Sequence record: PQ759886
Source of the DNA: Escherichia phage Pu-Krd-SF6
Direction: 5' to 3' (one strand)
Length of the DNA stretch: 64,000 bases
The notes under the pieces were generated by a model, which saw nothing but the letters and a program-made list of their open reading frames with translations, had not been told where the DNA came from and did no database searches. Position 1 is the first letter of the stretch. The number at the start of each line of letters is the position of its first letter. A program made the translations under genes and the position numbers. Below, piece by piece: positions 55,572 to 56,276 of this stretch.

Positions 55572-55585
55572 GGGCCGAAGCCCTT
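55572..55585 (-). terminator. tetraloop hairpin between the HNH gene and uvsW.1
   Basis: GGGCCGAAGCCC. Confidence 0.45.
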
Positions 55586-56276
55586 ATAAATTAACTGTTT
55601 TTCTAAGTATTCTTAGTTTGTACATTGATAATCCAGTAGCTTTAGAAGCATCTTTCATACATTTATACTTAACACCATTTACTTCTATAGGTTTAGCAGC
55701 TGGGTTATTAGCTCCTGAATTATCTGGCATGTTATCTTTAATTTTCTGAATAGATTTAGCGGAATGTTTCCTTCCATACATGCCGTTATTTTTACCCGAT
55801 TGATTGATTGAATGTAATCTTTTAGCTTCTTCAGTCCATTTCGTTGGGTTCATTCTTTTAGTTTTACTAATTTTATTTCCCCATGTAATTGGACGACTTT
55901 TCATGAGTTTTGACATATATTGTTTATGTTCTTCCGTATGGTGTTTTCCGTAAAATGGATTACCTTCGCCGGATTGAAGTTCTGCCATTTTACGACGTTC
56001 CCATGCGTAAGATTTATTGACGTGTCTTTCATGAGTATTTGAATTCATCCCCATACATATAACAGCTTTAATTATACCGTAATGGTTTGGATGAATTTTA
56101 GCTAAAAGTTTATGGGCTATAAAATGTTCTTCAGCCGTTAGTTCTACTAAATTACACTTATCATTTGTACCACCCATACATCTAGGAATTATATGATGTG
56201 TTTCAGTGTATCCATTAAGGCGAGCCCGATTCTGGGCTCTATTAATTAAATTATCATATATTAATTTATAATTCAA
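55584..56276 (-). CDS. freestanding HNH homing endonuclease with NUMOD-like repeats
   Basis: 230 aa; HNH motif TETHHIIPRCMGGTNDKCNLVELTAEEHFIAHKLL; repeated G.NNPFYGKHHTEEHK-type modules; inserted between uvsW and uvsW.1. Confidence 0.75.
   Translation of the reverse strand: MNYKLIYDNLINRAQNRARLNGYTETHHIIPRCMGGTNDKCNLVELTAEEHFIAHKLLAKIHPNHYGIIKAVICMGMNSNTHERHVNKSYAWERRKMAELQSGEGNPFYGKHHTEEHKQYMSKLMKSRPITWGNKISKTKRMNPTKWTEEAKRLHSINQSGKNNGMYGRKHSAKSIQKIKDNMPDNSGANNPAAKPIEVNGVKYKCMKDASKATGLSMYKLRILRKTVNL

Follow-up and report, generated by a model that had tools for sequence, protein, structure and literature searches.

Among the systems described to date, the one closest to the gene reported here is mobE of phage T4, which lies between nrdA and nrdB and encodes a free-standing HNH homing endonuclease (Wilson & Edgell 2009, PMC2790892). 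The mobE gene is promoterless and has an internal 9-bp hairpin that acts as a weak terminator (PMC2790892); its product makes a strand-specific nick in nrdB of T2, and the gene is inherited at high frequency (PMC2790892; PMC2988022). The nick is placed 122-126 nt into the downstream gene (PMC2790892). The promoterless, translationally coupled arrangement has been described for mobE and for other T4 endonuclease genes (PMC2988022; PMC2790892). SegE is a GIY-YIG free-standing endonuclease whose gene is located between inh and uvsW and which targets uvsW (PMC2988022), and uvsW and uvsW.1 are separate open reading frames (ORFs) in all of the T4-like genomes studied (PMC1524935). Here, a gene at the uvsW/uvsW.1 junction was analysed in a stretch of 64,000 nucleotides from Escherichia phage Pu-Krd-SF6 (PQ759886), hereafter the window. 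The initial annotation had placed a 230-amino-acid (aa) ORF at this junction without naming its strand; the ORF was found as described and lies on the minus strand (Table 1). Sequence comparison and analogy with T4 MobE make it quite likely that the ORF is an active MobE-family free-standing HNH nicking homing endonuclease, namely the T6 copy at this locus.

The BLASTP comparison with the Mob family that had been proposed as a check matched the protein to T4 MobE (E value 8e-34, 42% identity over 181 aa). The identity was 42% overall and about 75% over the first 60 residues, which correspond to the N-terminal nuclease domain, and the HNH region (ETHHIIPRCMGG..NLVELTA.EHFIAH) was near-identical. 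A search of PHROGs assigned residues 1-217 to phrog_655 'homing endonuclease' (E 3.9e-60), to which the product of T4 mobE beside nrdA also belongs. The two proteins are of similar length (230 and 232 aa) and both contain NUMOD3 modules. Each gene is a promoterless cassette that starts in overlap with the stop codon of the gene before it and contains, about 30 nt into the ORF, a GC-rich hairpin; both are patchily distributed among the T-even phages. However, the loci differ (uvsW/uvsW.1 versus nrdA/nrdB), so that the target is presumably different as well; uvsW is the probable target gene here. In addition, the C-terminal ~60 residues are unrelated to those of MobE and resemble the helix-turn-helix of I-TevI, the start codon is TTG rather than ATG, and the hairpin has 6 bp and no U tract, compared with 9 bp in mobE.

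The distribution of the gene was examined with a 1.3-kb query around the ORF, which matched 501 phage records. Of the roughly 500 Tequatrovirus records, 48 had the whole insert and about 450 matched the flanks only, 690 bp closer together. The window matched Escherichia phages Pu-Krd-SF1/2/5/7 at 100% identity and phage T6 at 99%; T6 carries the insert, whereas T4 and T2 do not. In T6, Yersinia phage PST, ACG-C40 and other carriers, the gene DNA was 96-100% identical and in the same position; residue 22 is Gly in the window and Glu in T6 and PST, and nothing material separates the T6, PST and ACG-C40 gene from that of the window. The gene is already known and annotated, including in the T6 reference genome, as 'homing endonuclease' in the Pu-Krd-SF phages and T6 (AP018814 EcT6_00183; NC_054907) and as mobD/MobE in PST and ACG-C40.

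The structure of the insertion was resolved by aligning the junction in seven carrier and six non-carrier Tequatrovirus loci, a comparison of the kind suggested at the outset. The results showed that the insert is about 690 bp long, compared with 693 bp for the endonuclease ORF, and lies within the last five codons of uvsW. The proposed insertion between uvsW and uvsW.1 was thus at the junction named, but it is not strictly intergenic. In T4 (OZ209023), uvsW ends in ...AAA ACA GTT AAT TTA TAA, followed by the stem-loop GGGCTTCGGCCC, a Shine-Dalgarno (SD) sequence and the uvsW.1 ATG 25 nt on. T2 is identical to T4 at this junction, the sequence of which includes AAAACAGTTAATTTATAAGGGCTTCGGCCC, and no ORF is present in the 25-nt gap in T4 (OZ209023) or in T2, in agreement with the initial annotation, which had described the two genes as adjacent in T4 and the endonuclease gene as absent from that locus.

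Copies of an imperfect 18-nt direct repeat lie to either side of the insert. The right copy, AAAACAGTTAATTTATAA, consists of the original last five uvsW codons and stop (KTVNL*), which are intact in the window and now provide the endonuclease, in frame, with its C-terminal tail and stop codon (...RILRKTVNL*). The left copy, AAAGAGGTTAAACTTTGA, provides uvsW with a replacement end and at the same time holds the SD sequence and TTG start of the endonuclease. On the uvsW.1 side, the stem-loop GGGCTTCGGCCC (55572-55583) and the SD sequence GGAG precede uvsW.1 as in T4. That the split between uvsW and uvsW.1 is itself a scar of insertion, as fused UvsW in other phages might suggest, was considered and ruled out, as the two ORFs are separate in all of the loci fetched and in all T4-like genomes studied (PMC1524935).

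On the minus strand, uvsW of the window ends in ...AAA GAG GTT AAA CTT TGA, and the TTG start codon of the endonuclease (56276-56274) is embedded in the CTTTGA that carries the uvsW stop. The two ORFs therefore overlap by 4 nt, as had been stated. The SD sequence GAGG (56284-56287) lies 6 nt before the TTG, a stop codon is found in the endonuclease frame two codons 5′ of it, and a start at the next in-frame ATG would truncate the nuclease motif. From the first codon onwards, MNY(K/Q/E).. is conserved in the window and in the orthologs of four other phage lineages, which settles the start of the endonuclease. The orthologs start at the same position, two lineages with ATG and two with TTG; the TTG start is common to the window and to the Dhakavirus and Gaprivervirus orthologs.

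The presence or absence of the gene at one fixed site was found to be accompanied by linked polymorphisms in the flank. Only over the final ~200 bp of uvsW did carriers and non-carriers diverge by as much as 15-16%; the figure was 0.2% on the uvsW.1 side and 2-4% elsewhere, the latter not above the level within groups. Within the last 85 bp of uvsW, nine differences between carriers and non-carriers were fixed (56294, 56297, 56306, 56315, 56318, 56321, 56339, 56342 and 56360), all of them synonymous. The 93-nt uvsW tail of the carriers occurred in exactly 48 records, the number that carry the gene, and linkage was complete (48/48 carriers versus 0/450 empty sites). The T4-type 105-nt junction was found full-length in 450 records and at ≥99% identity in 478 records. 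OES_C-1, a non-carrier, is recombinant, having the carrier allele upstream of 56360 and T4-like sequence from there on, and this pattern bounds the obligatorily linked block. Both the divergence in the flank and the linkage fit what would be expected from homing.

The origin of the uvsW tail was also considered. The tail of the window was closest to that of T4 (82% identity) and 77-78% identical to those of Dhakavirus and Gaprivervirus, compared with 69-71% between the T4 tail and the latter two, which is only suggestive of a foreign origin. A patch of uvsW at 56365..56412 (minus strand, codons ~455-470) is hypervariable: the 13 Tequatroviruses compared fall into at least four allele classes, one of the differences being a 6-nt indel. 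Here VVSKSKTSSKKYSH of the window differs from the VKPKS.N.KKKYVH that five lineages have in common, and the same odd allele is present in the non-carrier OES_C-1.

With regard to the protein itself, the HNH motif that had been reported (TETHHIIPRC...NLVELTAEEHFIAHKLL) was present, and its catalytic residues were conserved in a family alignment of 61 sequences (the protein and 60 database homologs): H28, P31, C33, G36, N42, L46, H51 and H55 were invariant and H27 was nearly so (at least 90% conserved). NUMOD3 (PF07460) matched in two stretches with 51.8 bits (E 7.6e-14), above the gathering threshold of 20.4 bits, and Pfam gave a weak match to the I-TevI DNA-binding domain at residues 193-218. 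The initial annotation had counted three repeated modules; only two are NUMOD3 by Pfam, and the third unit, 'G-ANNP', is the beginning of the I-TevI-type helix-turn-helix. An AlphaFold2 model built on the homolog alignment was confident, with a mean predicted local distance difference test (pLDDT) score of 89.5, and predicted a beta-beta-alpha nuclease core followed by several helices, with a beta-hairpin and helix-turn-helix at the C terminus. In the model, this order resembles that of I-HmuI (N-terminal HNH domain, NUMOD3 helices, C-terminal helix-turn-helix), and the C-terminal 60-70 residues align to the DNA-binding domain of I-TevI both in sequence and in the model. The gene differs from those of I-HmuI and I-TevI in not being intron-encoded, and its product has no GIY-YIG domain. 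Fold searches with the whole model were dominated by helical-repeat noise; the only clear match was the I-TevI DNA-binding domain, and I-HmuI was not retrieved.

When the window was searched by tblastn with the endonuclease, the C-terminal DNA-binding domain of I-TevI was the only other match. The td gene of the window (24978..26854, plus strand) is interrupted by the group I intron ORF of I-TevI (25658..26395, 245 aa). A 62-nt segment of the DNA coding for the HNH motif (56146..56207) was 93.5% identical to T4 mobB, far above the overall similarity of these paralogs, which hints at gene conversion between mob genes.

Orthologs were found at the uvsW/uvsW.1 junction in Klebsiella phage Roth16, Dhakavirus PSD2002, Morganella phage Rgz1 and Gaprivervirus TH40/SP18. 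They were 54-70% identical to the protein of the window, compared with 30-45% for other Mob-like proteins, and by sequence the junction proteins form a distinct group. Start/stop overlaps of the form TTGA or ATGA were found at all of the ortholog junctions (ATGA in Roth16 and Rgz1). In Gaprivervirus, VR7 is a non-carrier whose uvsW ends in TAATTAAACAGGTGGAAATATAATGA, and TH40 and SP18 are carriers. In TH40, TAATTAAACAGGTGGAAATATAATGA precedes the endonuclease gene, where ATATAA has become ATTTGA, and recurs as the last codons of the endonuclease (LIKQVEI*), so that copies of the uvsW end, forming a near-perfect ~25-nt repeat, stand on either side of the insert. In Dhakavirus PSD2002, uvsW ends in MKEVQI* and the endonuclease in MKQVDL*. 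The duplicated host uvsW end thus flanks the insert in three of the five lineages, where its downstream copy is translated as the C-terminal tail of the endonuclease; in Roth16 and Rgz1 a flanking repeat is no longer clearly evident.

A metagenomic Dhakavirus-like Logan contig, DRR827159_75102 (locus L016), contains, between uvsY.-2 and uvsY, a 232-aa ORF (2897..3595, minus strand) without a Pfam hit; the corresponding interval of PSD2002 has a 34-aa ORF only. The longer ORF may be a further mobile insertion close to this locus.

The gene order around the insert follows the T4 map (gp27, gp51, gp26, gp25, uvsY, uvsY.-1, uvsY.-2, uvsW.1, endonuclease gene, uvsW, segE, inh). The segE gene (57784..58401, minus strand) likewise encodes a free-standing homing endonuclease associated with uvsW, but SegE belongs to the unrelated GIY-YIG nuclease family and its gene lies at the opposite end of uvsW. 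Both genes are present in T6, PST and the window; W143, SYGD1 and Sso113 have the HNH gene only; T4, RB5 and AR1 have segE only; and T2, OES_C-1, Ozark and RB68 have neither. The presence of the HNH gene is independent of segE.

A scan of the minus strand showed no late-promoter consensus between uvsW and the endonuclease gene. The only perfect consensus upstream on this strand, TATAAATA, is located before segE and is the likely source of a transcript spanning segE, uvsW, the endonuclease gene and uvsW.1. With no promoter of its own and with the TTGA overlap, the gene resembles in its arrangement mobE and other T4 endonuclease genes, which are promoterless and translationally coupled. In the 3′ end of the endonuclease gene, about 100 nt upstream of the uvsW.1 start, TATAAATG (55660..55667, minus strand) is one mismatch from the late-promoter consensus and may be an embedded promoter for uvsW.1.

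The 5′ coding hairpin sits where T4 mobE has its terminator hairpin. Four orthologs were predicted to form a stable hairpin at the same place, with free energies of -12 to -16.7 kcal/mol and z scores of -2.2 to -4.6. In the five uvsW-junction orthologs and T4 mobE, the hairpin begins ~30-38 nt into the ORF, and both the stem sequences and the encoded peptides differ, whereas a positional scan of eight more distant MobE-family members at other loci found no such hairpin. A U tract follows the hairpin in T4 mobE only, so that the hairpin without it would act as something other than a mobE-type terminator. This comparison was made from individual folds and the positional scan; RNAalifold on a MAFFT alignment gave 0 pairs because MAFFT had placed the hairpins out of register. 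The stem may covary, and the hairpin may exert translational or RNA-stability control over the dosage of the endonuclease. In a further predicted hairpin of 11 bp (AAAGUUUAAUU / GGUUAAACUUU, 56275..56309, minus strand, z -2.7), part of the SD sequence is base-paired, as are the first two bases of the TTG, and one of the G-C pairs is built by two carrier-specific substitutions. This second hairpin is unsupported as a conserved element, being predicted neither in the four orthologs nor in T4 and yielding no consensus pairs in RNAalifold.

Table 1 Coordinates of the features discussed (window positions unless a locus number is given)
Feature	Position	Strand	Remarks
HNH homing endonuclease gene, free-standing, MobE family	55584..56276	minus	230 aa, TTG start; ORF, phrog_655, T4 MobE similarity
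uvsW helicase gene	56273..57781	minus	502 aa; T4/T6 annotation; host gene
uvsW.1	55328..55558	minus	76 aa from ATG at 55558; Pfam UvsW-1, E 1.7e-30
Insert-linked haplotype block, uvsW 3′ end	56291..56360	minus	Nine fixed third-codon-position differences
Right copy of flanking repeat, AAAACAGTTAATTTATAA	55584..55601	minus	Identical to uvsW end of T4, T2, RB5, AR1, Ozark, RB68 and OES_C-1
Left copy of flanking repeat, AAAGAGGTTAAACTTTGA	56273..56290	minus	Replacement uvsW end KEVKL*; tail common to all 48 carrier records
HNH catalytic motif, residues 23-55, YTETHHIIPRCMGG..NLVELTAEEHFIAH	56112..56210	minus	Invariant residues in 61 homologs
First NUMOD3 module, residues 94-122, GEGNPFYGKHHTEEHK..	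55911..55997	minus	Pfam PF07460; AlphaFold helix at residues 115-126
Second NUMOD3 module, residues ~157-183, SGKNNGMYGRKHS..	55728..55808	minus	Pfam; aligns to I-TevI DNA-binding domain 1i3j
C-terminal beta-hairpin and helix-turn-helix, I-TevI/I-HmuI-type DNA-binding domain, residues ~187-227	55596..55718	minus	
Perfect T4 late-promoter consensus, TATAAATA	58430..58437	minus	Upstream of segE; only perfect one upstream on this strand
GC-rich RNA hairpin, 5′ coding region of endonuclease gene	56222..56239	minus	6 bp, 37 nt into ORF, no U tract
5′ coding hairpin across loci	window 56222..56239; L003 3534-3552; L015 2533-2552; L017 2538-2557; L019 2533-2552; L014 1534-1553		

Taken together, membership of the MobE family, presence or absence at a fixed site, the linked haplotype and the orthologs at the same junction support the earlier proposal of a mobile homing-endonuclease insertion, as do the absence of the gene from T4 and the conservation of the HNH residues. 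By analogy with T4 MobE, the endonuclease gene would share a late transcript with segE and uvsW, and its translation, coupled to termination of uvsW, would be low. On co-infection with a gene-free relative having the T4/T2-type junction, the enzyme would bind a long asymmetric site in the uvsW 3′ end or at the uvsW/uvsW.1 junction and nick one strand. The replication and recombination machinery of the phage would turn the nick into a break, and repair templated by the carrier genome would copy the gene and at least the last 85 bp of the donor uvsW into the recipient. The carrier genome would be protected because the insertion splits the site, and in Tequatrovirus the silent changes in the uvsW tail may add protection.

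Several observations weigh against this reading. The literature searches found no paper describing or testing this gene. The generic Pfam HNH model (PF01844) scored only 16.2 bits at residues 23-44 (E 0.012), under its gathering threshold of 21.4 bits; orthologs scored 17.2 and 20.5 bits, and T4 MobE passes in the equivalent region with 24.6 bits. Judged by the sequence, the HNH motif is present and the model fits this subfamily poorly. Moreover, T4 MobE nicks the downstream gene nrdB, whereas here the insert-linked differences were all upstream of the gene, with none on the downstream side. Diversity inside the endonuclease gene was 2.2-2.8%, similar to that of the flanks, so that there is no sign of a recent sweep. 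Finally, in Gaprivervirus the uvsW sequence upstream of the site is the same in carriers and non-carriers, implying that there the insertion itself must destroy the site and that the silent block of Tequatrovirus may be a hitch-hiking donor tract and not a protection. The idea of the silent substitutions as a protective change is weakened accordingly, and the clustered changes may protect the uvsW of carriers or may equally be a tract co-converted from a foreign donor.

The lack of a sweep, together with the presence of the gene in only ~10% of genomes, would also be in keeping with a protein that descended from a homing endonuclease but no longer homes, that is, an HNH protein, stranded or domesticated, retained for some other function such as competitor exclusion, DNA repair or processing, or provision of expression signals for uvsW.1. 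The late-promoter-like TATAAATG favours the last of these, as known T4 endonuclease genes embed promoters for downstream genes (PMC2988022). However, about 450 related phages do without the gene and have an unchanged region upstream of uvsW.1, and colonisation of the same site in several lineages, together with these gene-free relatives, points to a selfish element. Occupation of the site in at least five lineages and on both segE+ and segE- backgrounds points to repeated site-specific spread, and strong purifying selection with invariant catalytic residues is what an active endonuclease would need. Domestication is thus unlikely. The same selection bears on whether the gene is the decaying pseudogene remnant of a past invasion, as its TTG start and some shorter annotations (a 197-aa coding sequence in W143 and a 146-aa fragment in UniRef for UFV-AREG1) might suggest. 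The full 230-codon frame without internal stops was present in all seven Tequatrovirus copies examined, W143 included, and the TTG is shared with orthologs of two other genera and preceded by GAGG. The ratios of synonymous to non-synonymous codon changes (14:3, 20:4 for W143, 18:4 and 7:1) indicate purifying selection on the protein because synonymous changes are in excess. These data make a pseudogene very unlikely.

Several GenBank records (MK327944, MG867727 and MK373787) label the gene 'group I intron endonuclease', and TIGR01453 grpIintron_endo matched it with 30 bits. That match is under the cut-off of 56 bits and is explained by shared NUMOD3/helix-turn-helix DNA-binding modules. A search of 54500-58500 against Rfam gave no match to a group I or other intron even at E≤1, and the insert is essentially the ORF alone (690 bp versus 693 bp). 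In addition, uvsW is closed by a stop codon of its own, and in every T4-like phage uvsW.1 forms a separate ORF whether or not the insert is present (PMC1524935). The lack of intron RNA and the complete flanking ORFs exclude an intron-encoded endonuclease to the point where the label has almost no chance of being right. An active MobE-family nicking endonuclease is therefore retained as the preferred reading. Beyond it, we tentatively suggest, while regarding this as somewhat doubtful, that the uvsW-junction endonucleases make up an orthologous lineage of their own, as yet undescribed, which has stayed with a single site in at least five Tevenvirinae lineages and is marked by the duplicated uvsW end and the covarying hairpin.

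The wider importance of the gene is small; it is one further annotated Mob-type endonuclease among those of the T-even phages. What is added here is the exact anatomy of the insertion with its recoded duplicate, the figures for complete linkage, the finding of orthologs at this junction in other genera, and the 5′ hairpin shared among them. The locus is an example of an endonuclease cassette repairing the host ORF it interrupts by means of a recoded copy of the gene end, and T6 versus T2/T4 is a cleanly defined natural donor/recipient pair for studying homing by an HNH nickase. As uvsW is bracketed by two unrelated homing endonuclease genes, the inheritance of helicase alleles should be biased in mixed infections.

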